The translations under genes were made by a program, and so were the position numbers. Of a stretch of DNA of 32,000 nucleotides, positions 1-15,864 are shown piece after piece. This DNA is from Halogeometricum borinquense DSM 11551. Its GTDB lineage: Archaea > Halobacteriota > Halobacteria > Halobacteriales > Haloferacaceae. The notes beneath the pieces were generated by a model. That model did not search any database, was not told where the DNA came from, and saw nothing but the letters and a program-made list of their open reading frames with translations. The first letter of the stretch is position 1, and each line of letters begins with the position of its first letter. Where the stretch lies: positions 390,001 to 422,000 of the forward strand of contig NC_014729.1 in NCBI RefSeq assembly GCF_000172995.2. The letters run 5' to 3'.

Positions 1-200
1 GATTCATTAACACCTGTTGAGACTGCGCTCTCTGCGAATACCACTTCGGTGTCTGCAGAGTGCGTCGTAAAAACGGGATGCTTCGGGGTCGTACGGAAGA
101 CAAAGCCTTCCGTGATGACGAGACATTCCGCGTCTCGAACCACTTGAACCTGAGGTGATTCACCGTACTCGACATCGTATTGGTGGCCTTGCTCAGGCAT
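1..200 (-). CDS. hypothetical protein; the C-terminal end runs off the left window edge. Visible N-terminus: MPEQGHQYDVEYGESPQVQVVRDAECLVITEGFVFRTTPKH...
   Basis: Hand translation of the minus strand from ATG (plus-strand cat at 198-200) stays open to position 1. It is absent from the ORF track because no stop lies in the window. It is on the same strand as the ankyrin gene and 122 nt downstream of it. No domain recognised. Confidence 0.3.
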   Translation of the reverse strand, partial: MPEQGHQYDVEYGESPQVQVVRDAECLVITEGFVFRTTPKHPVFTTHSADTEVVFAESAVSTGVNE

Positions 201-322
201 TTTCTCACCCCGTATTCGGTTTCCACATCGGTGTCTGTGGGTGTTCAACAGGATATGCGGTGATCGCCTTGTAGATACTGTCCGATGACTGGTATGAAGT
301 GTCTGTTTCTCAGTGGGAGCAT

Positions 323-796
323 TCAGTCAGTGAATATCTCAATGAGGGCTTGATCATCCCGGCGGCGGGCGATAGATCGGGGGGATTTTCCGGCGTCGTT
401 CTGATTCGCTGGATCTGCCCCGTGAGCAACAAGTGATTGAATTATGTCGTCTTTGGTCTCTTCGTTCACTACTGCACTCCATAACGGTTGATTACCGTAG
501 TCATCCGTTACTGTAACATCTGCTCCTTCACTAAGGAGAATCCTTACCATGTCTTCGTAACCCATCTCCAGCGCGTAATGGAGCGGTGTCTTCCCTTCTT
601 TACCTCTGTGGTTGATGTCGATATCTCGATCTATGAGTTCTTTCGCAAACTCATCTTGTCCATATGCTGCTGCGGCATGGAGCAGATTATCGCCGGACTC
701 GTCTAATGTATTTATATCGACGGTATTGATTAAATCCCGAAATTTCTCTTCATCGCCTTCTTCAATGCTGTAGAATAGGAGTGTCGTCTCATCCAT
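323..796 (-). CDS. ankyrin-repeat protein (157 aa); candidate immunity protein for the adjacent toxin
   Basis: ATG start. Clear ANK consensus repeats: GDNLLHAAAAYGQDEFAKELIDRDIDIN, GKTPLHYALEMGYEDMVRILLSEGADVT and GNQPLWSAV...IIQSLVAHGADPA. The start lies 2 nt after the stop of ORF 799..1662. Confidence 0.9.
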   Translation of the reverse strand: MDETTLLFYSIEEGDEEKFRDLINTVDINTLDESGDNLLHAAAAYGQDEFAKELIDRDIDINHRGKEGKTPLHYALEMGYEDMVRILLSEGADVTVTDDYGNQPLWSAVVNEETKDDIIQSLVAHGADPANQNDAGKSPRSIARRRDDQALIEIFTD

Positions 797-798
797 CG

Positions 799-1662
799 TT
801 ATTCATCTCCCTCGTACTTTCTACTGCGGTTGGCTTTTGGCTTTTCCGGCCGATAGTTATCCGGGTCCCGGTACCTGTTGAGAAATTCTTCTTTCGAAAT
901 TAGTCCGCTTATGTACTTTTGATGCAATTTACGGTATTCCCTCCGGGGCTTGTGTCCCATATCCCACTGTCCCTCACGTGGTTCGCCTCGATCCCATTCG
1001 AGCCGTTCACCGGTATTTGGATCATAAACGTTCCCGTCTTCGTCTTTTGCCTGTTCCCACACTGCTTCGACTTGTCCATCGGCGTAATCTGGCCGGTTGT
1101 TGGCATATGGTTTGTCCTTCTCCTCACCACTTCTCGGCTGTTTGTACCTCTCTTCTAATTCGCTGAATTTTCCCTTTTCATCACGCTTCTGCTTTTCCCA
1201 CTGTTTGATCCTTTGAACGTGTATTCCTGCATTCGCCATGCGATGCACGCCGATTTTCCCACCTTGCATCACGCGCTGGGCGGTTTCTTCGGCTTCCCGC
1301 TCTAAGCGTGGGTCAGGATCAATCTCTAACTCGCCCGCTTGGGGGAGCATCGACACCGCGCCACCCGTTTGCTGGCGCACGTGTGCTAACTCGTGGGCGA
1401 GAATATGCTGGCCTTCAGCACTCGATGGATCGTACTCGCCGTGGTTGAACGCGATGTGATTGCCGACGGTAAACGCGCGGGCGTTGATGTCTTCACAGGC
1501 TTTCGCGGCCGATGGACCCGTGTGAATACGCACGTCGCCGAGGGTGTCACCCATCCGATCTTCCATCGCGCGCTGAATTGAGGTATTGAGACGCTGGTCA
1601 GACAGCACTGAAATATTACGAGCCGTCTCGTTAGAAAAGGCTCGTCTGTTGAGTAAACGCAC
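799..1662 (-). CDS. DUF4157 (zincin-like HExxH) domain protein with a GH-E-like HNH/EndoVII nuclease C-terminus; N-terminally truncated paralogue of 7257..8510
   Basis: DUF4157 signature: IQRAMEDRMGDTLGDVRIHTGPSAAKACEDINARAFTVGNHIAFNHGEY...QHILAHELAHVRQQ. C-terminal motif: DPNTGERLEW..WDMGHKPRREYRKLHQKYISGLISKEEFLNRYRDPDNYRPEKPKANRSRKYE. The first codon at 1660-1662 is GTG, not ATG. The first ATG (1564-1566) would cut into the domain, so the start is uncertain. Confidence 0.8.
   Translation of the reverse strand: MRLLNRRAFSNETARNISVLSDQRLNTSIQRAMEDRMGDTLGDVRIHTGPSAAKACEDINARAFTVGNHIAFNHGEYDPSSAEGQHILAHELAHVRQQTGGAVSMLPQAGELEIDPDPRLEREAEETAQRVMQGGKIGVHRMANAGIHVQRIKQWEKQKRDEKGKFSELEERYKQPRSGEEKDKPYANNRPDYADGQVEAVWEQAKDEDGNVYDPNTGERLEWDRGEPREGQWDMGHKPRREYRKLHQKYISGLISKEEFLNRYRDPDNYRPEKPKANRSRKYEGDE
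1237..1576. repeat. 340-nt block homologous to 7701..8040 (copy 1)
   Basis: Hand alignment at a constant offset of 6464 nt gives 304/340 identical positions with no gaps. Identity falls to roughly half within about 30 nt beyond either end. Confidence 0.9.
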
Positions 1663-2593
1663 CGCTTTCGGGGTTGTGGAACTCCGGATAGAAGTCGATA
1701 TAGCTGTAGCAGTGGGCCGCCATGAACTGTCCTAATCCCAGCACACGGAACTCCTCGGGCGGAACGACGCCCATCTCGATAAACACATCTCGAATCTGGC
1801 ACCGAAGGTAGTGATCCATGAACGACTGGAAGTATTCCAGGCTCTCTAGCTCAATCGGGAGCAGTTCGATAACCGTATCCGGCTCTCTGGAGGTCGGTTC
1901 GAGATGGTCATCGGCGGCCACTAAGTCCGTCCCTTCGGGGTGTTTGACGTACAATTGGGACGTGTTGTCGATATAGACCGCGTCTGAGAGGTCGATCTGT
2001 TCCTCTATCGCCCGCGTGGCGAACTCACCCGTAAACTCACCCCACTGTTTGATCTCCTCCGTGGAAAGATCGGCTATCGCCACGTCAGCCGCTGACTCCG
2101 CGGTGATATCGAGGTCATGCTTGGCGGCGAGTTCGTCACCGAGGTCGGTTTCCAGCGGGTCAATCCCGAGATAGACGTTCTGCGCGTAAATCGGCGGGGT
2201 CGTTGCTTGCGGTGGGACGTCATAGACCGGCTCGGCGCTCCCGTCGGTTTCGGAGGAGAACTGCTGGTAGAGGTCACCGAAGTGCGTCTCGAACGTCTCC
2301 AAATCCATCTGGGCGATTGCCTGCCGGACCGCGTCGATTCTGACGGGATTCTCCGGAGCCGAGACCGTATCGTATCCCCGCTTCAGGTATACGTAGTACT
2401 TGGCGTACTTGCGGGCCTGATTGACGTATTCATTACCTTCGTCCGTCCGCTTTGAGGAGTCATCCGGGTACCCGTCCTGTTCGTGGTAGGTAATCTCGCC
2501 GCTCTCGTTCGTCTCGATCAAGTGCTCAACATCATTGTTATCGATGACACTGAGCCCAATCCGCTCAGATTCTCCCGTGATGATTGCGTCCAT
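1631..2593 (-). CDS. hypothetical acidic protein (320 aa), no recognised domain
   Basis: ATG start, long ORF, acidic halophile-like composition, and core-like GC (a spot count of one line gave 62%). Its 3' end overlaps the GTG-started toxin ORF by 32 nt. Confidence 0.6.
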   Translation of the reverse strand: MDAIITGESERIGLSVIDNNDVEHLIETNESGEITYHEQDGYPDDSSKRTDEGNEYVNQARKYAKYYVYLKRGYDTVSAPENPVRIDAVRQAIAQMDLETFETHFGDLYQQFSSETDGSAEPVYDVPPQATTPPIYAQNVYLGIDPLETDLGDELAAKHDLDITAESAADVAIADLSTEEIKQWGEFTGEFATRAIEEQIDLSDAVYIDNTSQLYVKHPEGTDLVAADDHLEPTSREPDTVIELLPIELESLEYFQSFMDHYLRCQIRDVFIEMGVVPPEEFRVLGLGQFMAAHCYSYIDFYPEFHNPESGAFTQQTSLF

Positions 2594-2727
2594 TTATCTC
2601 ACCTCCGACTCTTTGCGTCACCAGTTGAGTCTCCCGACCCAGTTCCAACGGTTGCATCTTTGGCGGCCTGCCTGATATCGTCGAGCTACGCGTCTGGTGA
2701 GTCCATTTTAGCGAGTTGGTTCGGGAG

Positions 2728-3138
2728 ATGATCCGACAGCAGACAGAATTCGACTGTGAGAAAAAACAAGTCCTTGGACGGTCAGGGAACCACTACGAGG
2801 TTGATGCTGTCCCGCTAATTAAGGGCCGACAGAATGAGCGATACCTTCATCTCATCAATATCAAAGACACCATCGTCGCCAATACCAACAACAGTACGTG
2901 GTACAACCGTGTTGATCGCGCCCATGCGCGGATGGACGAAGTGGTTGGGGACTTCCTCCCGAAGTCGCTCGTGTTAGGTGAATTCAGTGATGTCGGTGAC
3001 CGGTCATTCAGGGCTGAGTTTGCGTCAATTGGGGCCCGAATCATCGATATTGAGTCGTTCGGGACCTTGATCGAAGAAATCGAATTATTTGCAGACAATC
3101 CAGCCCTGTTTACTCAGCGTCCACCTATTGACAGATAG
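2728..3138 (+). CDS. hypothetical protein (136 aa); weak resemblance to a PD-(D/E)xK / restriction-endonuclease-like core
   Basis: The track ORF begins at TTG 2716 and the first ATG is at 2728. The motif GRSGNHYEVDAV ... LHLINIKD is reminiscent of nuclease-fold cores but not diagnostic. The 3' end overlaps the convergent ORF 3085..3639 by 54 nt. Confidence 0.4.
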   Translation: MIRQQTEFDCEKKQVLGRSGNHYEVDAVPLIKGRQNERYLHLINIKDTIVANTNNSTWYNRVDRAHARMDEVVGDFLPKSLVLGEFSDVGDRSFRAEFASIGARIIDIESFGTLIEEIELFADNPALFTQRPPIDR

Positions 3139-3639
3139 TCGCCCGTGAACATCCTGCACGCAGCGCGAAGTGGTTCTGAAGTCCCCGTCTGGGGCGGTCG
3201 CGAACGTGAGTGCCATATCGCGATCACACTGCATGATGTTAACCTCTAACAGCTCGTTTTGATACGTTTCGACCACGTAGACGGTCGTCTGACTTTCGTT
3301 CCAGTCGTCGACGAACTGCGTACTGTTGCCATCCGAGACTGTCGACACACGGTCCGAACATACCGGGTCGTGGAGAGTGACGTTAGTGTAGTTCGCCTCG
3401 GTCTGTAGTTCCTCTATCTCAACGAGCGTTTGATGTCCATCTCTTGTGGTAACGTCGAAGCGAAGTTTCTCAGGACTCTCTTGAGCACTTTGGAAGGCCG
3501 TGACCAAGTAGCTTGATTCTCGTTCGTTCTCGATAAGGATCTGTGTCTCATCGTCGGAGAGCAGTGTCGTGAAACCGACAACCAGTACGAGACTGGTCAA
3601 GAGACTGGTGAGAATCACTCGGCGTGAGGGCAGTTGCAT
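3085..3639 (-). CDS. secreted or membrane-anchored hypothetical protein with a Tat-like signal
   Basis: Internal ATG at 3637-3639 gives MQLPSRRVILTSLLTSLVLVVGFTTLL. This contains a twin-arginine-like SRRxxL motif followed by a hydrophobic helix. The remainder is acidic and Thr/Asn-rich. Confidence 0.55.
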   Translation of the reverse strand: MQLPSRRVILTSLLTSLVLVVGFTTLLSDDETQILIENERESSYLVTAFQSAQESPEKLRFDVTTRDGHQTLVEIEELQTEANYTNVTLHDPVCSDRVSTVSDGNSTQFVDDWNESQTTVYVVETYQNELLEVNIMQCDRDMALTFATAPDGDFRTTSRCVQDVHGRLSVNRWTLSKQGWIVCK

Positions 3640-3895
3640 CGGGTTAATTGCGTTCCCTCTCCCGGTATGCGTTTTGGGATGCAACGACGAAGCGACATAG
3701 TGAACTGAGACTCACTAGCGCACAGTTGCTGTCCTTGCACATAGGGAGAGAAACGTATATGAAATCCTGCCTAATCACGTCCAAGTCTGCTGAACGAGGG
3801 ACTCACTTACCGGCAGACTGCGTCGTCGGCCAGTGCTGAGGAGTCGTTAGCGGACGTCACTTATGTGTCAGTCTGAGTGACGGTAGGCTGGATGG

Positions 3896-4414
3896 TTAAC
3901 TACTATCATCTTCCAATACTGAGCGTGCCCGCTGGACGTAACTATTTGTGTCCCAACTTCGGGCGGTACTGATGTCGTCCAAGAGAGTACATGCCTCAGC
4001 GGGCATCAATTGTCCTGTTCGGACGAATACCGAAAGCAGTGTCGGCGTCGTCACAAGTCGTGTATCGACTAGTGACGCGTGAATCAGTCCCAGCGAGTTG
4101 AATTCATCACAGAGGAAGAGGGCGGCGTCGATATCGTTTGCGAGTGTCACGGCGGCGTTCTCGCCATCATCGAGTGGGAACTCAACATCCAAATCTACTG
4201 ACCGAACCAGCAGCTCGGCAGTCTGGTCAAGGACGACGGTTGCGGCGTGTCCATGCGCATCATCATACGAGGCAATCTCTCGGAGTTCTTCAATAACCAC
4301 CTTTGGGACGGACACATCATAGCCGGTGAGACAGCGTGAGAGGGGATTCGGGTCGGAGTCGGAAACGATGCCCAGACTCACGAGTGCGGATGTGTCTGCG
4401 ACTAGCGCTGCCAT
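3896..4414 (-). CDS. PIN-domain (VapC-like) protein, putative toxin
   Basis: N-terminal MAALVADTSALVSL (first PIN Asp), followed by VIEELRE, DDGENAAVTLA and LCDEFN acidic motifs in the usual PIN order. The ATG directly abuts the stop of the upstream RHH gene (TAG-ATG). Confidence 0.75.
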   Translation of the reverse strand: MAALVADTSALVSLGIVSDSDPNPLSRCLTGYDVSVPKVVIEELREIASYDDAHGHAATVVLDQTAELLVRSVDLDVEFPLDDGENAAVTLANDIDAALFLCDEFNSLGLIHASLVDTRLVTTPTLLSVFVRTGQLMPAEACTLLDDISTARSWDTNSYVQRARSVLEDDSS

Positions 4415-4717
4415 CTATACGTCGGCGACCTCGTCGACGAAACTGTCGTCCAACTGCTGTTTCAACACCCGGAGGTTTGCCGCCTCTTCGGCGCCGACGA
4501 GCGCTTTGAGTTGCTCGAACGTGATCTCGTCGTCGTAATAGGCGGCGGCAATCTCCTGGACGAGTGCGTCGTCGTGAGCGGCGTCTTGGAGGTATTCCCG
4601 AAGCGCGGTCACGAGGACGTCTGTTCGGTCTTCCCCGAGGACGGCGGCCAGTGCGTCGGCCCGGTCGATAAGCCGATTGGGGGCCCGAAACTGCACTCGC
4701 TTCTTATCTGTACTCAT
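4415..4717 (-). CDS. ribbon-helix-helix (CopG/VapB-like) antitoxin
   Basis: Starting at ATG 4715-4717 gives MSTDKKRVQFRAPNRLIDRADALAAVLGEDRTDVLVTALREYL, a typical RHH beta-strand plus two helices. The longer track ORF starts at a GTG (4777) and adds a non-acidic leader. Confidence 0.75.
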   Translation of the reverse strand: MSTDKKRVQFRAPNRLIDRADALAAVLGEDRTDVLVTALREYLQDAAHDDALVQEIAAAYYDDEITFEQLKALVGAEEAANLRVLKQQLDDSFVDEVADV

Positions 4718-4719
4718 GA

Positions 4720-4773
4720 TGTGTACAATGTGAGCCAGCACACTTAGTCGTTTTCGTGTGTACAATGTGAGCC
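4720..4773. promoter_or_regulatory. two exact 17-nt direct repeats (TGTGTACAATGTGAGCC), candidate operator of the RHH-PIN operon
   Basis: The copies are at 4720-4736 and 4757-4773, a 37-nt period. Each contains the palindrome TGTACA. The first copy begins 3 nt upstream of the antitoxin ATG. Confidence 0.5.
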
Positions 4774-4960
4774 TCACTAGGTCTCTATCGATTACTCGCT
4801 GCTCAACGCAGTCGATAGCGAGTCGTGTTCGTCAGCAAGGACTTCAACAAGACCAAAGAAACGGAGAGTCGGCGGTCCAATCACCGTGGAGCACTGGATG
4901 AATCACGTCCGGGTCCGCACCAGCCGAGTCGGTTTTGCACACGTCAATTCGTCGCCCGTG

Positions 4961-5000
4961 TGCAGTTTCACGGAAGCGACGATCTCTACGTGAAACTGCA
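4961..5000. repeat. perfect 12-bp inverted repeat with a 16-nt spacer (strong hairpin)
   Basis: TGCAGTTTCACG (4961-4972) pairs with CGTGAAACTGCA (4989-5000). It lies about 45 nt past the stop of the minus-strand ORF 5044..5433. Confidence 0.6.
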
Positions 5001-5043
5001 AGCATGTCAATTGCCGACAGCTACCTTCGGTGTAACCGCTTCC

Positions 5044-5433
5044 TTAGACTTCACGTGCCCACTCAAGTCCCTCGTCGAGAGTATCGAAGTCAGCAATTTC
5101 TGCCTGTGGAACCTTCATCCGAGATTTGACTGCCATTCCGGTGATTCCCTCTGCAACGAATCCAACCTTCTCAACACCAGCGTATTTGCAGTTGCCAGAC
5201 CACTCTTCAGCCATATACTCTTGTGTCTCCGCTGAGAGATTTGTCTTATCGCCAAAGATTGCTAAGGTAGCTGTAATATCTTCTTTACTCGCCCGTTCAC
5301 GATAATGCTGGCTGACTGCTTCTAGCGTTTCATCTGCGAATCCTGCCCAGCCGCGGATATCCCAGACACCGACATTATCGCGTTTTTGGAATTCCCATTC
5401 GTACTCGTCAGAATTCGGTAGTTTCGATCCCAT
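5044..5433 (-). CDS. hypothetical protein (129 aa); possibly a SpoIIAA/STAS-like fold
   Basis: Internal ATG at 5431-5433 gives MGSKLPNSDEYEWEF.... The N-terminal extension in the track ORF is Cys-rich, non-acidic and lies in AT-rich DNA. The C-terminal pattern GVEKVGFVAEG..MAVKSRMKV...IADFDTLDEGLEWA resembles DUF3478/STAS-like proteins only loosely. Confidence 0.5.
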   Translation of the reverse strand: MGSKLPNSDEYEWEFQKRDNVGVWDIRGWAGFADETLEAVSQHYRERASKEDITATLAIFGDKTNLSAETQEYMAEEWSGNCKYAGVEKVGFVAEGITGMAVKSRMKVPQAEIADFDTLDEGLEWAREV

Positions 5434-5692
5434 GATACATAGCGAGTTAATAACTAGATCCGAATATATCTGCCCGTACCTGCAGAGACAATCAGATATC
5501 GTAACCGTTCTATAATCCTTTCTGGTTATAGATTCAACATTTGTTGGGTGATTATTTACAGCGGTAGCGAGGCGAAAGCCCATCCCCTTAGGGGCAGAAG
5601 GAAGCCGACAACTGGGGACCTATCCACACTCGTAGCCACGCTGGGGTTGGATGTTTGCATAACAACACCCTCGTTGAGGGAAACCAAGCTAC

Positions 5693-6148
5693 TCAGTCAA
5701 CCTGTTCGTTGGCCCAGTTGTTTATGTAGTGTTGTTTCTTCTCCTGTCTGTGCCACAGCATTAGGATGTCCTCGTCAGCGTTCTCGTCTTCCCGGCTTGC
5801 GGCCCATTTGTTCGGGTCGAAGTCTGGTCTGTCCTGCCACCACGCATCATAGGTAGTGGTAAATGTATTACTGTTGTCATAGATTCGGAAACTGGTCTTT
5901 CCGTTCTCATAGTCATGGTTGTAGGTTACTTCTGTGCCCGGACTGTACAGGTCCCAAGTTGTCCCGTCGATTTGGACGAGTATCGTATTTTTTTCTGAAT
6001 CTGGATAGATAGCAACCCAGACACCGTCTACTTCGCTGCAAACACCCGAGATGTCTTGGTCTTCTATATCTGTGAATTCATCACCCACTCCCTCAGAGAG
6101 GTCGAACTGAGTGTATTCCACGAACCGGTCGAAGTTCCTCAGTTTCAT
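5693..6148 (-). CDS. hypothetical protein (151 aa), intact member of a tandem paralogue pair; candidate orphan immunity protein
   Basis: The track start at 6160 is TTG. The ATG at 6146-6148 gives MKLRNFDRFVEYTQFD, which aligns with MYLKQFNRRSEYTCFD of the neighbour. Shared motifs are WxAxYPD, TWDxY and TTYDAWW. Confidence 0.6.
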   Translation of the reverse strand: MKLRNFDRFVEYTQFDLSEGVGDEFTDIEDQDISGVCSEVDGVWVAIYPDSEKNTILVQIDGTTWDLYSPGTEVTYNHDYENGKTSFRIYDNSNTFTTTYDAWWQDRPDFDPNKWAASREDENADEDILMLWHRQEKKQHYINNWANEQVD

Positions 6149-6180
6149 TCTCACCGCCAACGATCACCTAGATGAATGCA

Positions 6181-6648
6181 CTACCGCTGTAGGGCTTCGG
6201 ACCACGGTTCGATCCAATTGTTCTTGTCCTCCTCATTAATCGAGAGGTATTTTATGTACCCGAAGAAGTCTTTCATCTCGTTGTCTTGTTCTTCGAAGGT
6301 GAGCCATTCACTTGGCTTTAGATGAGGGACTTCTTTCCACCAGGCATCATACGTCGTCTCGAAACTGTTGTCATTATCTTCGATTTTGAAGTAGGTCTTG
6401 TCCTGGTCGTACTTGTGCTCGTAGGTTATCTTACTGTCCTCGCCGTAGATATCCCAAGTAACTCAGTCAATGTGAACGATTAAACTCTCACCATCCGCAT
6501 CTGGGTATACAGCAATCCATCGGTTGTCTATGTTTTTACAGAACCCCGATGTCGCTTCGTCTTCGATTTCTTGAAACTCGCTAACGCTATCGTCCGAAGG
6601 ATCGAAACAGGTGTATTCCGACCGTCGGTTGAACTGTTTCAAGTACAT
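6181..6648 (-). pseudogene. paralogue of 5693..6148 interrupted by one in-frame TGA
   Basis: Hand translation continues in the same frame past TGA (plus-strand tca at 6463-6465): ...LIVHID*VTWDIYGEDSKITYEHKYDQDKTYFKIEDNDNSFETTYDAWWKEVPH...ALQR, with the final stop at 6181-6183. The stop sits where the paralogue has Gly (QIDGTTWD). Confidence 0.7.
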
Positions 6649-6737
6649 TTTATGAACTAGTCGGGTCCTGTCTGCTGTCCAGCGTCCGAACGACCATTAT
6701 AGAATATCGATCGACGCCCTCGTCGTGATCAAACTGC

Positions 6738-7250
6738 CTACTCGTCAACGTAGGGGTCCAACAGCTCCACCACGTCCGTTATCCCATGCTTTTTCACCCA
6801 CTCCAGCACAGATTCCCCGGACTCATCTGTCGCCGTCGGATCAGCACCGTGTTCAAGGAGCAGTTTCACGAACTTCCGATCACTTCGGCCCCTCGTAACC
6901 GCCACCGAGAGCGGACATCTCCCCTTGTTATCGAAGATATTCGGGTCAGCACCCGCCTCAAGCAATACCTCGGCTGTGTCATAGCTTTCAACTTCTATCG
7001 CATGAAGCAACGCTGTGTGACCTCCATTATTTTGAGCATCCAGATCGATCCCCCGATCAATCAGCTCCCTCGCTATTTCTGGACGATCTGCACCCGCGGC
7101 CTTATGCAAAAGGGTACTTCCATTGTCTGACCGATGAGTCAGGTCAGCGTCATCAATGAGCTCATCGAACTCCTCTGTATTGCCCTGGATAATCGCCGAT
7201 TCAATGTCGGTACTAATGTACAGATCGTCGGGTCCTTTGTCTTCACTCAT
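6738..7250 (-). CDS. ankyrin-repeat protein (170 aa); candidate immunity protein
   Basis: ANK repeats: GSTLLHKAAGADRPEIARELIDRGIDLD, GGHTALLHAIEVESYDTAEVLLEAGADPN, GRCPLSVAVTRGRSDRKFVKLLLEHGADPT and GESVLEW. The ATG lies 6 nt after the toxin stop. Confidence 0.9.
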   Translation of the reverse strand: MSEDKGPDDLYISTDIESAIIQGNTEEFDELIDDADLTHRSDNGSTLLHKAAGADRPEIARELIDRGIDLDAQNNGGHTALLHAIEVESYDTAEVLLEAGADPNIFDNKGRCPLSVAVTRGRSDRKFVKLLLEHGADPTATDESGESVLEWVKKHGITDVVELLDPYVDE

Positions 7251-7256
7251 AGTTTT

Positions 7257-8510
7257 TCACTCCAGTGGTCCCCATTTTTCTGCCCAGTATTCGCCTTCTT
7301 GCTCATGCTCCCCGGAACTGCTCGCGCGATGTGATTCTGGCTGATAGTGGTCCGGATTTCTGTACTCTGCTAAGAACTCTTCACGGGTAATAATTCCTCT
7401 CAGATAGTACTCGACCAGATACCAGTACTCTCGCCTGGGTTTATGCCCCATACACCATTCATCACGATCCAGCGGTACCTCATCGACGGCACAAAACACA
7501 ACACCATTAGGACCTTTCGCCCTGTTCCACACCTCTTCCCGCTGCCCTGGTTCATACCTTGGACGTTGGTCGTGTCCATAGGGCTTCTCCTCACGCTTTG
7601 TTCGCTTCTTGGCTATCTCTTCCTTCAGTGGGCCAAATTCCCCATTCGGGCGTCGTTTTTGATCCTCGTGATGACGCTGGACATGAACCTCGGAGTGCTC
7701 CATGCGATACACGCCGATTTTCCCACCTTGCATCACGCGCTGGGCGGTTTCTTCGGCTTCCCGTTCCAAGCGCGGGTCCGGGTCAATCTCTAACTCGCCC
7801 TCTTGGGGGAGCATCGACACGGTACCACCTGTTTGCTGTCTCACGTGTGCTAACTCGTGGGCGAGAATATGCTGGCCTTCCGCCGAACTTGGGTGGTACT
7901 CGCCGTGATTGAACGCAACATGATTCCCAACGGTAAACGCGCGGGCGTTGATGTCCTCACAGGCTTTCGCAGCCGATGGACCCGTGTGAATCCGGACGTC
8001 ACCGAGGTTGTCACCCATCCGGTCTTCCATCACGCGCTGAATCGAAGCGTTCAGCGACTGTCCCGGCGAGGAAATCACGTCCCGAACCGAATCCGGGACC
8101 TGTGTGTCGCCAGCTTTCGACGCCTCGTGGTGCGCGCCGCGACTACGCTGGACAGATTTAGCGTTCCGGCGTTCGATGTCCTTTGGGACTTCTGCGGGGC
8201 GTTCTTTCTGACGCTGGCGGAACGCGCGCATGTCGCGTGGCTTGCCTATCGTATCGACGGTCATTCCCTCGTCGGCCCATTCTCGGACTTGACCTGCGCC
8301 GTGTTTCTTGGCCAGTCGCTGAATCTTCGTATCCAGCCCGTCCATGTAGATCTCTACCCCGAAGCGAGATTCACACTCTTGGGGCGTTAGCGAACCACCG
8401 CCACCACGACTCCGATTCCGATTCGAGCCTCCCGTCAACTCTTGAATAGACGGAACGGACGAGGACTCTTTGCTCGGAGTCGTCCGCTCGTTCGCAGACC
8501 GAAATCTCAT
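7257..8510 (-). CDS. full-length DUF4157 (HExxH) protein with a GH-E-like HNH/EndoVII nuclease C-terminus (417 aa); candidate polymorphic toxin
   Basis: ATG start. It has a unique N-terminal region of about 165 aa with no signal peptide. The DUF4157 core is IQRVMEDRMGDNLGDVRIHTG...HILAHELAHVRQQ. The C-terminal motif is WCMGHKPRREYWYLVEYYLRGIITREEFLAEYRNPDHYQPE. Confidence 0.85.
   Translation of the reverse strand: MRFRSANERTTPSKESSSVPSIQELTGGSNRNRSRGGGGSLTPQECESRFGVEIYMDGLDTKIQRLAKKHGAGQVREWADEGMTVDTIGKPRDMRAFRQRQKERPAEVPKDIERRNAKSVQRSRGAHHEASKAGDTQVPDSVRDVISSPGQSLNASIQRVMEDRMGDNLGDVRIHTGPSAAKACEDINARAFTVGNHVAFNHGEYHPSSAEGQHILAHELAHVRQQTGGTVSMLPQEGELEIDPDPRLEREAEETAQRVMQGGKIGVYRMEHSEVHVQRHHEDQKRRPNGEFGPLKEEIAKKRTKREEKPYGHDQRPRYEPGQREEVWNRAKGPNGVVFCAVDEVPLDRDEWCMGHKPRREYWYLVEYYLRGIITREEFLAEYRNPDHYQPESHRASSSGEHEQEGEYWAEKWGPLE
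7701..8040. repeat. 340-nt block homologous to 1237..1576 (copy 2)
   Basis: Same hand alignment as copy 1: 304/340 identical, gap-free, with sharp loss of identity at both borders. Confidence 0.9.
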
Positions 8511-8525
8511 TCTTACTGCAAACTT

Positions 8526-8546
8526 GATAGCTATCCTATATAATTA
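8526..8546 (-). promoter_or_regulatory. candidate promoter of the toxin gene: 10-bp palindrome GATAGCTATC plus a TATA-like element
   Basis: GATAGCTATC is at 8526-8535. The AT-rich run TATATAATTA at 8537-8546 lies 27-36 nt upstream of the ATG at 8510, which fits a leaderless haloarchaeal transcript. Confidence 0.3.
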
Positions 8547-8623
8547 CTCGCGCCTAGACCGCGGCGGTGTGTAGAGACGGCCGTGCCAGCGGTTTCTTGC
8601 GCTTCGAGTTCCAACGATCACGT

Positions 8624-8926
8624 ATGCCCAGTACCGCCCCGTCGTTCGACCCCGAGGAGTTGATGACCTCGTTGGAAGACGAATTCGGCGGACGGGAGGC
8701 CGAACGGCGCGTTGTCGCCCGACAGGCGCGTGATCTCGCGGACTCCGGGAAGGTCGAACGCGACCGCGGGCAACCACTCACCGTCGAAGAAGTGGTACGG
8801 CAGATGCGCGACGCGCCGGACGATTCGACCATCCCTGAACGCTGGAACTGGTGGCTCGGCTCATTGGAAGCCGCGTACGGCGGCTACCGCGAATTCCAAG
8901 TGACGCGCATCCCCAACGGTGACTGA
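8624..8926 (+). CDS. hypothetical protein (100 aa)
   Basis: The ATG at 8624 gives an acidic product: MPSTAPSFDPEELMTSLEDEFGG.... The upstream part of the track ORF is basic and non-halophilic. Confidence 0.6.
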   Translation: MPSTAPSFDPEELMTSLEDEFGGREAERRVVARQARDLADSGKVERDRGQPLTVEEVVRQMRDAPDDSTIPERWNWWLGSLEAAYGGYREFQVTRIPNGD

Positions 8927-8943
8927 CTCGCTCCCGGCCCCCG

Positions 8944-9261
8944 TCACTCGGACGACAAAAGTTCCGCGACGAGTTCTCGTGCCCTCTCTACGTGTTTGTC
9001 GGCCGCGTCGTCGCCCGTCTTTTCGACGTTCGAGAGGAGGTTAGAGACGGTTTCGATGCGCGACTTCACGACCGCCGGTGCGACGTTCGGATCGTCGGCT
9101 ACGTCGCCCGCAACGGCTTCCGCCTCTCCGAGATGTGCGCTCGCGGTTCGTTCGACCGGCCGTTCGGCCGTCGCAGCGAGGTGGTCGTGCAGTTTTCGGA
9201 GTTTCGCCCGCGTCGCTTCGTCCACGCTCGTCATTGCTTCGGAAAGAGGCTCCTGCGTCAT
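8944..9261 (-). CDS. hypothetical protein (105 aa)
   Basis: The internal ATG at 9259-9261 gives an acidic helical protein: MTQEPLSEAMTSVDEATRAKLRKLHDHL.... The long N-terminal extension in the track ORF is basic and overlaps the start of the halocyanin gene. Confidence 0.55.
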   Translation of the reverse strand: MTQEPLSEAMTSVDEATRAKLRKLHDHLAATAERPVERTASAHLGEAEAVAGDVADDPNVAPAVVKSRIETVSNLLSNVEKTGDDAADKHVERARELVAELLSSE

Positions 9262-9410
9262 CAACGCAGTGGGTGCGGCGCGGTGGTACCCACTGAAGGG
9301 GGTAGTCGCGGTCCGCAAACGCTTCCCGAATACCGGCGATTTGTTGTCATAGAGACCTTTTCTGGGCCATATCCTCGGACTCTTAGTGGGTAACCGCAAG
9401 GTGCGTAACG

Positions 9411-10100
9411 ATGACTGATTCACCGCTCACGCGCCGACGGGTACTTCGAGCGACGACTGGGTTGGCTGTCGTCGGACTTGCAGGCTGTACGACAGGGGAA
9501 AACGGCGATTCAACGAACGGAACTGCCACTGGCAGCCACGAGGGAACTGCGACCGAATCGGGACACAGCGAAGGGGGAACTGCGTCCGGACACCACGATA
9601 GCGACGGTCACGAGGACAGCCACAGCCACGAAGACGACGGCCACAGCCACGACGAGACGGTTGGCGAACCGACGGACACTGCCGTCGTGAAAATGCTCTC
9701 GAAGGACGGAGGCTACCACTTTTCGCCGCACGTTGTGCGGGTAACTGTCGGGGGAACCGTGACTTTCCAGAACGAAAGTGGGAGTCACTCCACGACCGCC
9801 TACCACCCTGACAACGGACAGCCACAGCTCGTCCCCGACGGCGCGGCCGCATGGGACAGCGGAATACTCTCAGAACAGGGGGCGACGTTCGAGCACACGT
9901 TCGAGACCGAGGGCGTCTACCACTACTACTGTACGCCTCACGAATCGATGGGAATGATTTCGACTGTCATCGTCGGCGAACCCGATGCACACGGTCAACC
10001 GGCGCTCGAAACGTCACTTGCAGACAAATCCGAGACCGTGCGGACGAAGATAGCGAACCTCAACGAGCAAGTAAACGAAGCACTCGGGAACACGCACTGA
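9411..10100 (+). CDS. halocyanin (type-1 blue copper protein), Tat-lipoprotein precursor
   Basis: Twin-arginine signal TRRRVL followed by the lipobox LAGC. The cupredoxin ligand motif is YHYYCTPHESMGM (C-x2-H-x4-M), with an upstream His in SGSHSTTAYH. Confidence 0.85.
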   Translation: MTDSPLTRRRVLRATTGLAVVGLAGCTTGENGDSTNGTATGSHEGTATESGHSEGGTASGHHDSDGHEDSHSHEDDGHSHDETVGEPTDTAVVKMLSKDGGYHFSPHVVRVTVGGTVTFQNESGSHSTTAYHPDNGQPQLVPDGAAAWDSGILSEQGATFEHTFETEGVYHYYCTPHESMGMISTVIVGEPDAHGQPALETSLADKSETVRTKIANLNEQVNEALGNTH

Positions 10101-10142
10101 CGTTCCGCTTTCCGGAGCGATGATCCCGACAGCCGGGTCATC

Positions 10143-11429
10143 CTAATTCACGGTGACTTTCTCACCCAGCTCTGGTGCCGAGGCGTCGAATCCATCGTCG
10201 TTCAGTTCATCCGCGAACAACTCACAGCGGTCGCCGTGGTTGACGAGAATTGGGGCCTCTCGATACGCTGAAAGCAACTCCAGCAGGCCGTCGCGGTCTG
10301 CGTGGGCGGAGAAATCGTACCACTCGACCTGCGCGCTGACCGGCATCACCCGCTCATCGATCTCCGCTCGCCCGCGCTCCAGTAGGTCGCGGCCGGGAGT
10401 CCCTTCGACTTGATACCCAGTCAGCGTGATCTTGTTCGTCGGGTTCGACCGAATTTCTGGGACGTATGTCATCGCCGGGCCGCCGGAGAGCATCCCGCTG
10501 GTCGTGACGATAACAGTATTCTGTTTGGCGATGCGTCTTCGCTGTCCGTCACGACCGGTGACGAAGCGAGCGTTGGACTTCGCCCGTCGCAGGGCGTCTT
10601 CGTCCCGAACGAACTCGGGATGCCGACGGAGCATCTTCGTCACCTGCTTGCCCATCCCATCGACGTAGCAGTCGATATCGTTGGCCGCACAGACCAGTAG
10701 CATCTCCTGCGTTCGACCGATGGCGAACGCCGGAATGACGACCGTACCACCCTCCCAAACCGCCGTCCGGACGCTCTCGACGAAACGCTTCTCGATTCGC
10801 TGGCGACGCTCGTGTTCGACGTCGGAGTAGGTACTCTCGCAGATGATGACATCTGCATCGGGCCGCGCAGTGGAGGCAGACACAAGCCGTTGATCGTCAG
10901 TGTGGAAATCCGCAGTGTAGAAGAGTCGCGTATCGCCGTCATCGATAAGAACGTGCGCGCTTCCGGGAATATGTCCCGCGTTGTAGAAGGTAACTTCGTG
11001 CCCCGCGGCCTCGAACGTTTCTCGATAGCTGTGCGTCTCCGAGACTTGCGTGACGCGGCGGATCTCCTCCTCGGTAAACGGGCAATCGTAGGTCCCACCG
11101 CGTCGTCTTTGACCCTGTGAGCCTCCGGTCGCTCCGCGTCCGGAGATTCCCCGGAGCTTCAGCGTATCCCGTGCGAGCGTCAGTGCCAGTTCGCGCGTCG
11201 GTGGTGTCCAGTGGATTGGCGGTCGTCGGTCACCGGAGAGTAGCGAGGGGACCGCGCCGACGTGGTCGAGATGTCCGTGACTGACGACGACTGCATCTGG
11301 CTCGGGCGTGTCCACCGGAAACTGTGGCGGGTTTCCGGTCAACATCCCGTAATCGAGGAGTAAGCGGTCGTTCACGAGGATGGCACTCCGGCCGACCTCG
11401 CGCGCACCGCCGAGAAACCGAATATCCAT
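10143..11429 (-). CDS. MBL-fold beta-CASP family ribonuclease (aCPSF2-like)
   Basis: MDIRFLGGAREVGRS start, the HxHxDH motif VSHGHLDHVGAVP, and later GHIPGSA, DFSAHAD and VNHGD motifs typical of beta-CASP enzymes. The ATG is at 11427-11429. Confidence 0.85.
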   Translation of the reverse strand: MDIRFLGGAREVGRSAILVNDRLLLDYGMLTGNPPQFPVDTPEPDAVVVSHGHLDHVGAVPSLLSGDRRPPIHWTPPTRELALTLARDTLKLRGISGRGATGGSQGQRRRGGTYDCPFTEEEIRRVTQVSETHSYRETFEAAGHEVTFYNAGHIPGSAHVLIDDGDTRLFYTADFHTDDQRLVSASTARPDADVIICESTYSDVEHERRQRIEKRFVESVRTAVWEGGTVVIPAFAIGRTQEMLLVCAANDIDCYVDGMGKQVTKMLRRHPEFVRDEDALRRAKSNARFVTGRDGQRRRIAKQNTVIVTTSGMLSGGPAMTYVPEIRSNPTNKITLTGYQVEGTPGRDLLERGRAEIDERVMPVSAQVEWYDFSAHADRDGLLELLSAYREAPILVNHGDRCELFADELNDDGFDASAPELGEKVTVN

Positions 11430-11561
11430 GTTGCTCTTGATAGCGAGGCGCACCGTTTGGATTCGTCGCTTTTAACGTCAGCGCAGTTGTCGTCGGTCGG
11501 GTGTCACACACGACAAAACGAGGGGCGGAGACGACTGCCTGTCAGATACCGTTCGCAGATT

Positions 11562-12752
11562 TCAGTCGTCGGCTGTGCTCGTCGCCTCGAAATCGGAGAT
11601 TTTCTGTTGTTCGTCGTCGATTGCGCTGAGCGGATTGCGTCCGCGGGCGTCGGGTTTGAGCGGTTCGCCGGTGACGAGTTCAGGGAGAACGATTCGGACG
11701 AAGTGGACGGCGATAACGAGAAGAAGCGGGCCTAAGAACAGTCCGTACCAGCCGAACAGCGCGGGGCCGATGATGTAGGCGAACATCACCGTCCCGGTGT
11801 GGAGATTCCGTCCGGAGACGTACGGTCGAAGCAGGAAATCGGGAATCGTATCGACGACGACGAGTGAGACAGCGCCGTAGGCGAGCGCGACCCAGAAGGC
11901 ATCGGGTGCGGTCAGTGCGGCTTCCACTGCGAGCAGCACCGTTACCGGAACATAGACGATTTTCATCCCGACGACGGGAATGAGACTTGCGGCTCCCGTC
12001 AACGCGCCGAGAAGCGTCGGCGACGGGATCCACAACGAGGGTGGGGCAAACAGGTTGATGGCGTTGTAGGAGACGGCGGCGATAACGGCGATAGCGAACG
12101 CGTTCAGGATATTGCCGAAGTAGATGGTCCGAAGGTCGCGGTCAACTGCGGTCATGTAGGCGTCCATAACTCCGCCGTGTCCCGAGAGGTTCTCGCGCGT
12201 CCACGCGGAGAGTCGTCTATCGTCACGCAGAAGGTAGAACGCGAAGGCGAAGGCGATGAACAACTGAAACGCCGCATCAAGGATGAACGACGCCGTTCCC
12301 GCGATGGACGAGAGAACTGCTTCGACCGTTGCGGTGTCCGTCATGTCAACTAACTCGCTCGGATTTTCGAGGAGCGTTGCCAGCAGTTCGCTGGGTGCCT
12401 GTAACGATTCGAACGAACCGAGATACGGTTTCAGCGCCGCCAGTATCCCCTGTTGGTTCTGTCCGACGAACGCACTCAGTTCTTGAACCGCGATGAGCAC
12501 GGTGTAGTTGACGAGGAGAACCACAGGAAGCGAAAGGACGAGCAGCGCCACGGCCGCCCCGATGCTCGGTTGTCCGATTCGCCCGCGAATCCGTGAGTAC
12601 ACCGGACGTGTCGCATAGTATAGAAACAGCCCTAGCATGAACGTGCCGAGGAACGCGTCGGCAACGAACGCTAAGACGACAAATATCGCTACTCCGAGGA
12701 CCCACCATATCGCCCGTGACCGATCGATAGTTGAGGTGAAACCGAAATGCAT
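11562..12752 (-). CDS. AI-2E family transporter (PerM/UPF0118)
   Basis: Multi-TM protein with the characteristic C-terminal region IPVVG...DTIPDFLLRPYVSGRNLHTGTVMFAYIIGPALFGWYGLFLGPLL. Confidence 0.8.
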   Translation of the reverse strand: MHFGFTSTIDRSRAIWWVLGVAIFVVLAFVADAFLGTFMLGLFLYYATRPVYSRIRGRIGQPSIGAAVALLVLSLPVVLLVNYTVLIAVQELSAFVGQNQQGILAALKPYLGSFESLQAPSELLATLLENPSELVDMTDTATVEAVLSSIAGTASFILDAAFQLFIAFAFAFYLLRDDRRLSAWTRENLSGHGGVMDAYMTAVDRDLRTIYFGNILNAFAIAVIAAVSYNAINLFAPPSLWIPSPTLLGALTGAASLIPVVGMKIVYVPVTVLLAVEAALTAPDAFWVALAYGAVSLVVVDTIPDFLLRPYVSGRNLHTGTVMFAYIIGPALFGWYGLFLGPLLLVIAVHFVRIVLPELVTGEPLKPDARGRNPLSAIDDEQQKISDFEATSTADD

Positions 12753-12825
12753 CGTCGTGGATTGGTTCGACGGGGACTAAACTCCTCGCCTCACTGTCAC
12801 CAGAGCGGTCGGTTCGTCCTGTCAG

Positions 12826-13620
12826 TCACTCGTCGATGGTGTAGTCGCCCCTAAAGCGTCTATCGTGGAGGGCCGGGAACTCGGCGCGCACCTCCTCGAC
12901 GGTTTCGCGGTCGATTTCGGCCGTGACGGTACGGTCGCCGTTCCCGGCGTTCGCGCGCTGGATACCCCACGGGTCCACAACGACGCTTTGCCCGCCTAAC
13001 TCGACACCGCGGTTCGTTCCGGTGAGGTTTGCAGCGACGAGGAATAACTGATTCTCGACGGCACGCGTGCGCGTGAGGAGGTGCCAGTGGTCCGACCGAG
13101 CGGCCGGCCACGCCGACGTAACTAACAGGAGTTCGACGCCGCGTTCGACAAGTTGGCGGTACAGTTCGGGAAATCTGAGGTCGTAACAGGTTGTGAGTCC
13201 GACGGTACCGAGGTCGGTCTCGACGGCGCACACTTCTTCGCCCGGCGTCAGAACCGTGCTCTCCTCGGACTCGTACCCGAATAGGTGGATCTTCCGATAG
13301 GAGGCGATTCGCTCGCCTGCGGGGTCGAACAGCAGACTCGTGTTGTACAGGTCGTCGCCGTCGCGCTCGACGATGCTCCCTCCATGAAGGTGAATATCGA
13401 GTTCGTCGGCCAACTCGGCTAGCCGAGTTGCCGTCGGACCGTCGAGCGGTTCGGCAGCGTCGTCGTACGCGTCGAAGGCGAAATAGCCCACGTTCCACAT
13501 CTCGGGCAGGACAACTAACTCCGCTCCCCGCTTGGCGGCGTCGCGGACGCGCGAGACGGCGCGTTCGACGTTCGCTTCGACCGACTCCTCGGCCGTCAGT
13601 TGGACGGCAGCCACGTTCAT
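12826..13620 (-). CDS. carbon-nitrogen hydrolase (nitrilase superfamily)
   Basis: The E-K-C triad contexts are VVLPEMW, YRKIHLF and LTTCYDLRFPE. The track start at 13635 is GTG. The ATG at 13618-13620 gives MNVAAVQL, the usual family N-terminus. Confidence 0.85.
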   Translation of the reverse strand: MNVAAVQLTAEESVEANVERAVSRVRDAAKRGAELVVLPEMWNVGYFAFDAYDDAAEPLDGPTATRLAELADELDIHLHGGSIVERDGDDLYNTSLLFDPAGERIASYRKIHLFGYESEESTVLTPGEEVCAVETDLGTVGLTTCYDLRFPELYRQLVERGVELLLVTSAWPAARSDHWHLLTRTRAVENQLFLVAANLTGTNRGVELGGQSVVVDPWGIQRANAGNGDRTVTAEIDRETVEEVRAEFPALHDRRFRGDYTIDE

Positions 13621-13692
13621 ATCCGGATGTTCCACCCGCGTCGCTTAGGAGTTGCCGTCAGCATGTCGATGTCGTAACTGATTTACCAGTCG

Positions 13693-13708
13693 TTTAGGTA
13701 TACCTAAA
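13693..13708. promoter_or_regulatory. perfect 16-bp palindrome TTTAGGTATACCTAAA, candidate operator/promoter element of the ABC importer operon
   Basis: The sequence is exactly self-complementary and ends 6 nt before the permease ATG (13715). Its half-sites TTAGGT/ACCTAA equal the outer half-sites of the DtxR/IdeR iron box, but with a shorter spacer. Confidence 0.4.
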
Positions 13709-13714
13709 GCAAAG

Positions 13715-14857: not shown

Positions 14858-15706
14858 ATGGCTGAAAGCGAATACGAACACATGACTGTGGAACAGACGC
14901 AAAACAAAGGCGAACAAACCGACGTAGTAAGCGCGCTTGTCGGTGACGACCTGACGCTGTCGTATGCGACGACTGACCAGCCAGTCGTCGAGTGCGACAG
15001 AATCGACATTCCGCGCGGGGAGATAACCGCGCTCGTCGGTCCGAACGGCAGTGGGAAGAGTACGCTGTTGAAGGCGCTCTCGAAGCAACTCGCCCCAGAC
15101 ACCGGGAACGTCCTGCTCGACGGACAGACGATTCAGGAGTACGGCGACAAGGAGTTCGCCCGCGAACTCGGACTGCTCTCCCAAGAAAACGACTCTCCGA
15201 ACACGATTACCGTCGAAGAGTTGGCCTACCACGGTCGCTATCCGCACCGCGGCTTCTTCGAACAGGTTAGCGAGGAAGACGAGGAGGCAGTCGAACGCGC
15301 CATCGACCTCGCCGGCGTCGATCACATTCGCGACCAGACGGTCGGCAATCTCAGTGGCGGCCAAAAGCAACTCGCGTGGATTGCGATGGTACTCGCACAG
15401 GATACCGATGTGCTTCTCCTCGACGAACCGACGACGTATCTCGACTTACACCACCAACTCCGCGTGATGGAAACGGTCCAACAACTGAACGACCGGCGCG
15501 ACGTAACCATCGCCGTTGTGCTCCACGACATCGCCCAAGCCGCCCGCTTTGCCGACTATCTCATCGCGCTGCAAGACGGTGAGGTGTACGACTGGGGACC
15601 GCCGCGCGAAGTCGTTACCGAGGAACTCCTCGCGGATGTGTTCCGTGTTGAAGCAGCCGTGTCTTACACGCCAGATCCCGAAATAATCCCCAAACATTCA
15701 CTGTAG
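14858..15706 (+). CDS. ABC transporter ATP-binding protein (FecE/BtuD type)
   Basis: Walker A GPNGSGKST, signature LSGGQKQ, Walker B VLLLDEPT and H-loop VLHD. The ATG immediately follows the permease stop. Confidence 0.9.
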   Translation: MAESEYEHMTVEQTQNKGEQTDVVSALVGDDLTLSYATTDQPVVECDRIDIPRGEITALVGPNGSGKSTLLKALSKQLAPDTGNVLLDGQTIQEYGDKEFARELGLLSQENDSPNTITVEELAYHGRYPHRGFFEQVSEEDEEAVERAIDLAGVDHIRDQTVGNLSGGQKQLAWIAMVLAQDTDVLLLDEPTTYLDLHHQLRVMETVQQLNDRRDVTIAVVLHDIAQAARFADYLIALQDGEVYDWGPPREVVTEELLADVFRVEAAVSYTPDPEIIPKHSL

Positions 15707-15864
15707 CGTTCGCGTTTTCTGACCGTCTGTCATCGCGGACGAAACGAGTTTCAAACGGTAGCCAGACCTGCGGGTGTTCTCCTCTGCCGCGGTCACGAAA
15801 GCCAGACCACAGAAAAATTCCAGCACGCCGTCGTCTCACACATACACAGCACTCACTGCCAGCG

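Follow-up and report, generated by a model that had tools for sequence, protein, structure and literature searches.

The window considered here is a stretch of 32,000 nucleotides from the chromosome of the haloarchaeon Halogeometricum borinquense DSM 11551 (NC_014729.1, positions 390,001 to 422,000). It contains a polymorphic-toxin island of low GC content (48-57% over window positions 1..8000, with flanking DNA at some 60-62% over 8500..16000), and within this island the segment 323..2739 on the minus strand is probably a displaced, or 'orphan', module. This reading is supported by comparisons within the window and across haloarchaeal loci. In transcription order, the module would consist of the decayed 3' stub of one toxin gene, the DUF7958 partner of that toxin, a second toxin cut at the boundary between its N-terminal domain (NTD) and its DUF4157 core while retaining an intact GH-E tip, and an ankyrin-repeat gene. 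The features on which the argument turns are the following, in window coordinates.

323..796, minus strand: ankyrin-repeat gene of 157 amino acids (Ank157; Pfam Ank_2 and related models), presumed to confer immunity to the type-2 GH-E tip
799..1608, minus strand: Hbor_04090, NTD-less DUF4157 and GH-E toxin, 269 amino acids from GTG 1606-1608
811..1038, minus strand: GH-E (HNH/EndoVII-fold) nuclease tip, type 2 (PF14410)
1236..1581, minus strand: conserved block within the core, repeated directly at 7700..8045 (repeat family D1) and a possible substrate for homologous recombination
1360..1590, minus strand: DUF4157/eCIS-core (PVC-metallopeptidase) domain (PF13699), its HExxH motif intact as AHELAHV
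1609..1630, minus strand: junction of 22 nt separating the toxin GTG from the DUF7958 stop codon, the truncation breakpoint, the same in the window and in two further loci (L004 and L005)
1631..2593, minus strand: DUF7958 gene, 320 amino acids (PF25858, on the 100% identical protein P0121)
2594..2739, minus strand: decayed 3' remnant of the tip of a P0022-like toxin, interrupted by an in-frame stop and detected by tblastn
6738..7250, minus strand: ankyrin-repeat gene of 170 amino acids (Ank170; Pfam), presumed to confer immunity to the type-1 GH-E tip
7257..8510, minus strand: full-length paralogue of 417 amino acids, with NTD, DUF4157 and type-1 GH-E tip (Pfam matches for both domains, as in the short gene)
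8061..8510, minus strand: NTD of the paralogue, ~150 amino acids without a counterpart in the short gene, presumed to be the loading or trafficking module for a contractile injection system (CIS)

An initial annotation, made from the sequence alone, had read the open reading frame (ORF) 799..1662 (287 amino acids, counted from a GTG) as sharing its DUF4157 core with the full-length paralogue while carrying a strongly diverged GH-E tip, and profile searches bear this out. PF13699 (DUF4157/eCIS_core) is matched at residues 25-101 (E=3.9e-31) and PF14410 (GH-E) at residues 209-284 (E=1.2e-28), the latter across the whole model (1-68). The metallopeptidase columns H72/E73/H76 of the DUF4157 domain are invariant (alignment A3). 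In the aligned GH-E tip the invariant W/M/G/H/E/Y residues are all present, and its signature comprises the invariant G218/H219/E224/Y225 and P254/E255; in the 'NPD[HN]Y' stretch the usual N is replaced by D, as it is in the full-length protein P0011, with an N two residues further on. The short gene thus keeps the domain order of CIS cargo, with an HExxH-bearing DUF4157 domain N-terminal to the GH-E tip. An AlphaFold2 model of the short toxin has predicted local distance difference test scores of ~68-83 in the DUF4157 part and 87-97 in the GH-E part; a Foldseek search of this model against the PDB returned no match with E<1, and its weak HNH-nuclease and small-metallopeptidase matches are not evidence. 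The GenBank protein Hbor_04090 (P0002) is 100% identical to the short ORF, and the short ORF, the 417-residue paralogue and the 320-residue ORF upstream all match proteins of a single genome, that of DSM 11551.

Comparison of the two toxins locates the cut. The proteins are 63% identical across 274 amino acids, a value that combines ~95% identity in the core with 43% in the tips. At the DNA level the core block is 89.4% identical over 349 nt, with longest exact runs of 54, 39 and 26 nt; homology starts at ~1600-1590 and stops at ~1236, and outside these limits identity is at background. With identity at background upstream of ~1600, the first ~150 residues of the long protein have no equivalent in the short gene. 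The absence of an N-terminal region had been proposed correctly, although its length had been put at roughly 165 amino acids. No remnant of the NTD was found elsewhere in the window. The cores lie 6464 nt apart in the same orientation, with the full-length gene upstream and the short gene downstream, and they are separated by unrelated genes, namely a PIN-like gene with its upstream partner and an Ig-like gene. The proposal that the short gene belongs to an orphan or displaced cassette is therefore upheld: it lies downstream, in the same orientation and without an NTD, it carries a different tip and its own immunity gene, and it shares the 349-nt core block with the full-length gene.

Full-length members of the family have a common layout, in which the NTD is followed by DUF4157, a conserved linker ending in HVQR and a variable tip, with a separate immunity gene next. 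In the AlphaFold2 model of the 417-residue paralogue, residues 1-38 of the NTD are disordered and basic, residues 43-128 form a confidently predicted helical domain, and a short helix precedes DUF4157. An NTD ahead of DUF4157, a trait of CIS cargo of this family, is absent from the short gene. A homologue search with the NTD alone returned six fragmentary proteins and missed known full-length relatives; it was replaced by a local phmmer search with the paralogue NTD over the 120 closest homologues, of which 109 contain the domain, while the 11 that do not include every short form. The closest relative of the short tip, P0003 of Haloferax sp. S1W (419 amino acids, 70% tip identity), is itself full-length, and its NTD resembles that of the 417-residue paralogue. 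Because 109 of 120 homologues carry the NTD and the nearest relative of the tip is full-length, the short form is, to judge from these sequences, derived rather than ancestral. Homologues in which the short form is the ancestral stand-alone architecture, which would have spoken against the initial annotation, are not what is seen.

The 5' end of the short gene also required revision. It had been held that the gene lacks an ATG start and that its only upstream in-frame start is a GTG at 1660-1662, inside the preceding gene. The first part stands; however, a second in-frame GTG exists at 1606-1608, which lies outside the preceding gene and is the annotated start of Hbor_04090. From this codon, located 22 nt past the DUF7958 stop, the entire DUF4157 domain is kept. 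A start at GTG 1660-1662 would overlap the DUF7958 gene by 32 nt in a different frame and would add at most 18 non-homologous residues ahead of the annotated start. A start at the ATG 1564-1566 (residue 33) would, as had been stated, remove the beginning of DUF4157: the first 8 matched residues are lost and the first helix of the domain (residues 9-19 of the 269-residue protein in the AlphaFold2 model) is cut. An AT-rich TTTTCTAA is present 23-30 nt ahead of GTG 1608 and provides only a hint of a possible TATA box. In a second assembly of DSM 11551 the protein appears as P0001 (C499_10514), 299 amino acids in length, with a 30-residue internal duplication in DUF4157 (AFNHGEYDPSSAEGQHILAHELAHVRQQTG, twice) corresponding to window ~1390..1480. 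Assembly of a repeated family has probably produced this duplication as an artefact, although it could be real heterogeneity.

The same truncation junction recurs, with a different tip, in another H. borinquense genome (L005, GCA_040679015.1). Window 2643..1236 is 92% identical to L005 8963..10373, and the match spans the DUF7958 gene, its stop codon, the 22-nt spacer, the GTG and the truncated core up to HVQR. Past HVQR, the L005 copy continues into a glycine-rich membrane-type tip and another DUF7958 gene, not into GH-E and ankyrin. In the comparison of strains suggested in the initial annotation, a different tip at a shared junction is found, and a recombinant between the 8045 and 1581 blocks is not seen in the strains compared. 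In L005 the 93.75% identical DUF7958 gene follows directly after a 505-residue full-length DUF4157 toxin, which adjoins genes for CIS components (sheath, tube, Pvc16-like and AAA-ATPase). The array there reads full-length toxin, DUF7958, truncated core with the other tip, DUF7958, a copy truncated at HELAHV, DUF7958, DUF7958 and a core fragment. Viewed as a whole, L005 7502..15100 has four DUF7958 genes alongside a single full-length toxin, two toxins truncated to increasing degrees and a core fragment on its own, and this compact example of nested orphan formation would be a good experimental target.

These comparisons also bear on the gene that precedes the short toxin in the window, which proves to be a DUF7958 member belonging to the same displaced module, a correction of the earlier account. 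Its assignment to PF25858 comes from the precomputed annotation of the identical protein P0121. DUF7958 is a haloarchaeal family with 162 homologues, mostly of ~280-350 amino acids, and in L005 its members sit directly 3' of DUF4157 toxin genes. From gene position alone, the DUF7958 gene is probably the orphaned immunity partner of another DUF4157 toxin, one of the membrane type. Ahead of it, a tblastn search with P0022 residues 317-353 identifies the decayed toxin stub (46% identity, E=4e-6, with an internal stop), a region that is also aligned with L004 and L005. On sequence evidence, then, the short toxin and its ankyrin gene are the downstream half of a larger displaced module made up of stub, DUF7958 gene, NTD-less toxin and ankyrin gene. 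A 140-residue ORF on the opposite strand (2716..3138, plus strand) has no Pfam match, partly overlaps the decayed stub and corresponds to no called gene in L004; it is probably not a gene.

The ankyrin gene is the fourth member of the module. As the initial annotation had noted, a different ankyrin gene begins 2 nt past the stop codon of the short toxin (323..796, minus strand); the corresponding gap at the long toxin is 6 nt, and Ank157 and Ank170 are only 33% identical. Ank157 finds its closest relative in Ank156 (57%), which is encoded directly 3' of P0003 in Haloferax sp. S1W, so that tip and ankyrin co-vary with the S1W pair, at 70% and 57% respectively. The best matches of Ank170 are likewise ankyrins of other toxin loci, S1W Ank167 (52%) and Ank169 of L006 (50%). 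Pairing of Tox-GH-E with Imm-ank is listed in PMC3482391, and Ank157 is presumed to be the cognate immunity protein of the short toxin.

A census was taken to place the module among its relatives. It covered 68 sequences (61 haloarchaeal loci, with one genome per species, six loci fetched earlier and the window), and a tblastn search with the 123-residue core yielded 130 unique core copies. Of these copies, 75 were classed as full, with at least 60 amino acids upstream of the core, 37 as truncated within the core, 11 as having fewer than 30 amino acids upstream, 4 as intermediate and 3 as cut by the end of the locus. Truncated or NTD-less copies thus number 52 of 130, and for 45 of them a full-length copy is located upstream on the same strand, with a median core-to-core spacing of 2052 nt (range 1522-6960). 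A truncated copy is found within 8 kb downstream of 37 of the 75 full-length copies and upstream of only three. The truncation points range from the NTD to about core residue 105. A tip ORF of at least 100 amino acids is still open in 31 of the 52 truncated copies, the other 21 being clearly decayed. For 23 of the 31 orphan tips, a counterpart of at least 60% identity is carried elsewhere by a gene classed as full-length; as one of the 23 matches the orphan's own annotated protein, this amounts effectively to 22 of 30. Such sharing of tips between truncated and full-length genes is illustrated by P0019 and P0025 (96%) and by the window tip and P0003 (70%). L006, a brine metagenome contig, has a GH-E/ankyrin cassette truncated inside the NTD, in keeping with the same pattern, and in Haloferax sp. 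S1W core fragments lie downstream of P0003 among ankyrin, SUKH and colicin-immunity genes.

Several further observations concern the genomic setting. Scans of the window for tRNA genes and Rfam families were empty, revealing no tRNA integration site or known RNA element. Related full-length toxin-ankyrin pairs occur in the strains L002 and L003 in quite different chromosomal contexts. At window 5693..6160 (minus strand) there is a gene for a 155-residue acidic protein without a Pfam match, and 300 nt upstream of it lies a truncated paralogue of 61 amino acids (6463..6648, minus strand). In L003, four full copies and one truncated copy from this family stand in tandem (11866..13974) immediately behind the toxin-ankyrin pair. 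The appearance is that of a further family of orphan immunity genes.

The fate of the module can be followed in a syntenic sister strain (L004, CP050274.1), which matches window 12000..1 colinearly over 12 kb, with 96.4% identity. In L004 the short toxin gene and the DUF7958 gene have each suffered a net deletion of 1 nt within locally diverged stretches, and each is split into two ORFs; no protein is called across L004 15361-17703. Ank157 is intact there, with a single amino-acid change. Between the window and L004 the short tip differs by 10 non-synonymous and 6 synonymous changes, which gives a ratio of non-synonymous to synonymous substitution rates (dN/dS) of 0.445; the ratio is 0.076 in the core of the short gene, and neighbouring genes have values of 0.05-0.29. 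Together, these data fit relaxed constraint on the orphan tip with retention of immunity. Two side observations were made in the same comparison. Inside the toxin island, a 172-residue ORF with weak, sub-threshold PIN-domain matches and a 120-residue ORF upstream of it (window 3896..4777, minus strand) are 100% identical in DSM 11551 and L004, whereas the flanking genes differ by 2-6.6%, which suggests recent exchange or mosaic recombination. L004 also carries, at 12965..13023, a second and 100% identical copy of the 59-nt stretch at window 3075..3133. Within window 1..9500, no repeat that is 20 nt or longer and covers 3075..3133 was reported, and the duplicate in L004 may be the footprint of a rearrangement.

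Known biology of this species provides a frame for these data. H. borinquense uses a CIS resembling a type VI secretion system for contact-dependent killing, five DUF4157 proteins are secreted in a cis2-dependent manner and, for the toxins tested, toxicity is prevented by downstream partner genes (PMC11566945). The available part of its supplementary text makes no mention of Hbor_04090 and its neighbours. DUF4157, the PVC-metallopeptidase of Zhang et al. (2012), is the constant module of 'PVC' polymorphic toxins, for which H. borinquense is named as an example (PMC3482391). An archaeal CIS of this kind with DUF4157 cargo suits the locus, and the Rhs and contact-dependent growth inhibition (CDI) setting that the initial annotation had invoked does not. 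In the bacterial AlgoCIS, whose cargo has the form NTD-DUF4157-C-terminal domain, the disordered NTD is required for loading whilst DUF4157 and the C-terminal domain are dispensable (bioRxiv 10.64898/2026.05.27.728243). Orphan modules of polymorphic toxin loci have been defined and a recombination model put forward (PMC4436062), and a model of sequential displacement has been proposed as well (PMC5361080).

We suggest the following history for the displaced module. Resident toxin genes would have taken up incoming toxin-immunity cassettes by recombination within the conserved 5' part, and the old core-tip-immunity units would thereby have been pushed downstream without their NTD. A later recombination event, either in the core or at the HVQR end, would have joined the truncated core to the GH-E/ankyrin cassette. 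The ankyrin gene may have been kept because its product protects against the type-2 GH-E toxins of neighbours, shielding the cell when these are injected. Since the loading region is missing, Hbor_04090 presumably cannot be loaded or delivered; even if translated from GTG 1606-1608, the truncated toxin would be neutralised within the cell by its own immunity protein. It would then be free to decay, as it appears to have done in L004. A crossover between 8045..7700 and 1581..1236 would delete ~6.46 kb and place the type-2 tip on a full-length toxin beside its ankyrin gene.

Several points weigh against this account. In DSM 11551 the ORF is intact, none of the residues conserved in DUF4157 and GH-E is lost and a GTG provides a plausible start; the intact L005 ORF at the identical junction makes an expressed NTD-less protein conceivable. 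Sequencing errors could account for the two 1-nt deletions in L004, although neither lies in a long homopolymer, and the dN/dS of the tip is based on just 16 substitutions. The requirement for an NTD is borrowed by analogy from one bacterial extracellular CIS, which loads cargo into the tube lumen, whereas attachment of cargo to the spike is postulated for H. borinquense (PMC11566945). Hbor_04090 is missing from the published secretome as well; this says nothing either way, because its full-length paralogue is also unlisted.

The alternatives differ in what they make of the intact ORF. The initial annotation had regarded the cassette as a reservoir, and selection might indeed maintain the truncated toxin as a spare tip that is regularly moved onto the full-length gene. 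For the orphan Rhs tips of Salmonella, homologous recombination onto the full-length gene has reportedly been shown. The window offers a suitable substrate, a 349-nt direct repeat of 89% identity in the correct orientation with exact runs of up to 54 nt, and such a reservoir would be consistent with the sharing of tips between orphan and full-length contexts (23 of 31 cases), the tip ORFs of at least 100 amino acids still open in 31 of 52 truncated copies and the low dN/dS of the short-gene core (0.076). One-way displacement predicts shared tips equally, however, and gene conversion by functional paralogues could have kept the core value low. The sister strain carries a frameshifted toxin, the dN/dS of the tip is raised, 21 of the 52 truncated copies are clearly decayed, and the 8045/1581 recombinant is not seen in available strains. 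Passive displacement and decay account for the sister-strain frameshift and the many decayed copies at least as well. We consider a selected reservoir unlikely.

A functional, stand-alone short effector, translated from GTG 1606-1608 and delivered by the CIS through DUF4157 or by riding on the full-length paralogue, seems very unlikely. The ORF and its catalytic motifs are intact, the junction is conserved and followed in L005 by an intact ORF with another tip, DUF4157 is a statistical marker of CIS cargo (PMC11297309), and the cut falls exactly on a domain boundary, leaving a complete fold in the AlphaFold2 model. Yet the NTD is present in 109 of 120 relatives, the gene is frameshifted in L004, and loading of AlgoCIS depends on the NTD and not on DUF4157. 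Short forms are also confined almost entirely to positions downstream of full-length copies, and truncation points scattered over the NTD and the core speak of accidents rather than of an architecture. A variant, in which NTD-less toxins are expressed and reach the CIS by pairing of their cores with that of an NTD-bearing full-length paralogue, such that one loading module serves many tips, is a slim chance at best; if true, the haloarchaeal arrays of truncated copies would be functional multi-warhead operons. That the N-terminus has been lost through an assembly or sequencing error, or hidden in a frameshift fusion with the DUF7958 ORF, has next to no probability and is effectively refuted. 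The longest ORF does share 32 nt, in another frame, with the DUF7958 gene, and assemblies of the locus differ (the 299-residue P0001 with its 30-residue duplication), but the junction is identical across three independent assemblies or loci. No NTD-coding sequence occurs elsewhere in the window, identity to the paralogue being at background above ~1600. DUF7958 proteins stand alone, mostly at ~280-350 amino acids, with no DUF4157 fusion among the 120 homologues listed of 162. The fusion was accordingly ruled out as a candidate, given a stand-alone family and a junction that reads stop, 22 nt, GTG.

If the module is a displaced one, as we favour, the orphan toxin-immunity pattern of bacterial Rhs, CDI and Maf loci extends to archaeal DUF4157 toxins. 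The toxin family, the Imm-ank pairing, the H. borinquense CIS and the concept of orphan modules have each been published already, and no new mechanism or new kind of system is revealed. A search of the literature for DUF4157 together with 'orphan', which did not cover Makarova et al. 2019 (mBio), found no description of truncated archaeal cassettes. The added value is modest: truncation looks pervasive in haloarchaea, about half of the sampled full-length genes having a truncated copy downstream, and this explains the presence of many 'short' DUF4157 proteins and unannotated gaps beside immunity genes in haloarchaeal genomes. Moreover, as the truncation falls exactly on the NTD/DUF4157 boundary, the short copy could be used as a natural test of the archaeal loading signal.

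The module resembles the orphan modules of bacterial Rhs, CdiA and MafB loci (PMC4436062) in sitting downstream of a co-oriented full-length toxin gene, in lacking the N-terminal trafficking part, in sharing a conserved stretch with the full-length gene followed by an alternative tip and then its own immunity gene, and in the nested truncation points and decayed copies of related arrays. It differs in its archaeal host, in a conserved region composed of NTD, DUF4157 and linker rather than of Rhs/YD or filamentous haemagglutinin repeats, and in presumed delivery by a phage-tail-like CIS. The orphan is also 6.46 kb away from the full-length gene, with unrelated genes between them, and no recombination of this orphan onto the full-length gene has been observed in the strains compared. 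Under sequential displacement (PMC5361080), incoming modules likewise replace resident effectors whilst old immunity genes stay downstream, producing mosaic divergence, and orphan immunity proteins resemble those of pairs in other strains, as do Ank157 and S1W Ank156 here, and the S1W orphan Ank167, which is related to Ank170. Here, however, large 5'-truncated effector remnants are retained, some with intact tips, and not immunity genes alone; the effectors are DUF4157 fusion proteins and the host is an archaeon.

The closest known setting is that of the DUF4157 toxins and the CIS of H. borinquense itself, where the species and toxin family are the same and the Tox-GH-E/Imm-ank pairing is listed, whereas 5'-truncated orphan copies are not described in the available parts of these papers (PMC3482391; PMC11566945). 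Hbor_04090 is set apart from other family members by its lack of an NTD, and neither it nor its full-length neighbour is among the five secreted proteins. With Cgo1 and Cgo2, cargo proteins of AlgoCIS (bioRxiv 10.64898/2026.05.27.728243), the haloarchaeal family shares a three-part layout of disordered N-terminus, DUF4157 and variable C-terminal effector, to which the haloarchaeal NTD adds a confidently predicted helical domain of ~85 amino acids. Unlike AlgoCIS, in which cargo occupies the tube lumen, loading in H. borinquense is proposed to be associated with the spike, and it is by analogy only that a role in loading is assigned to the archaeal NTD.

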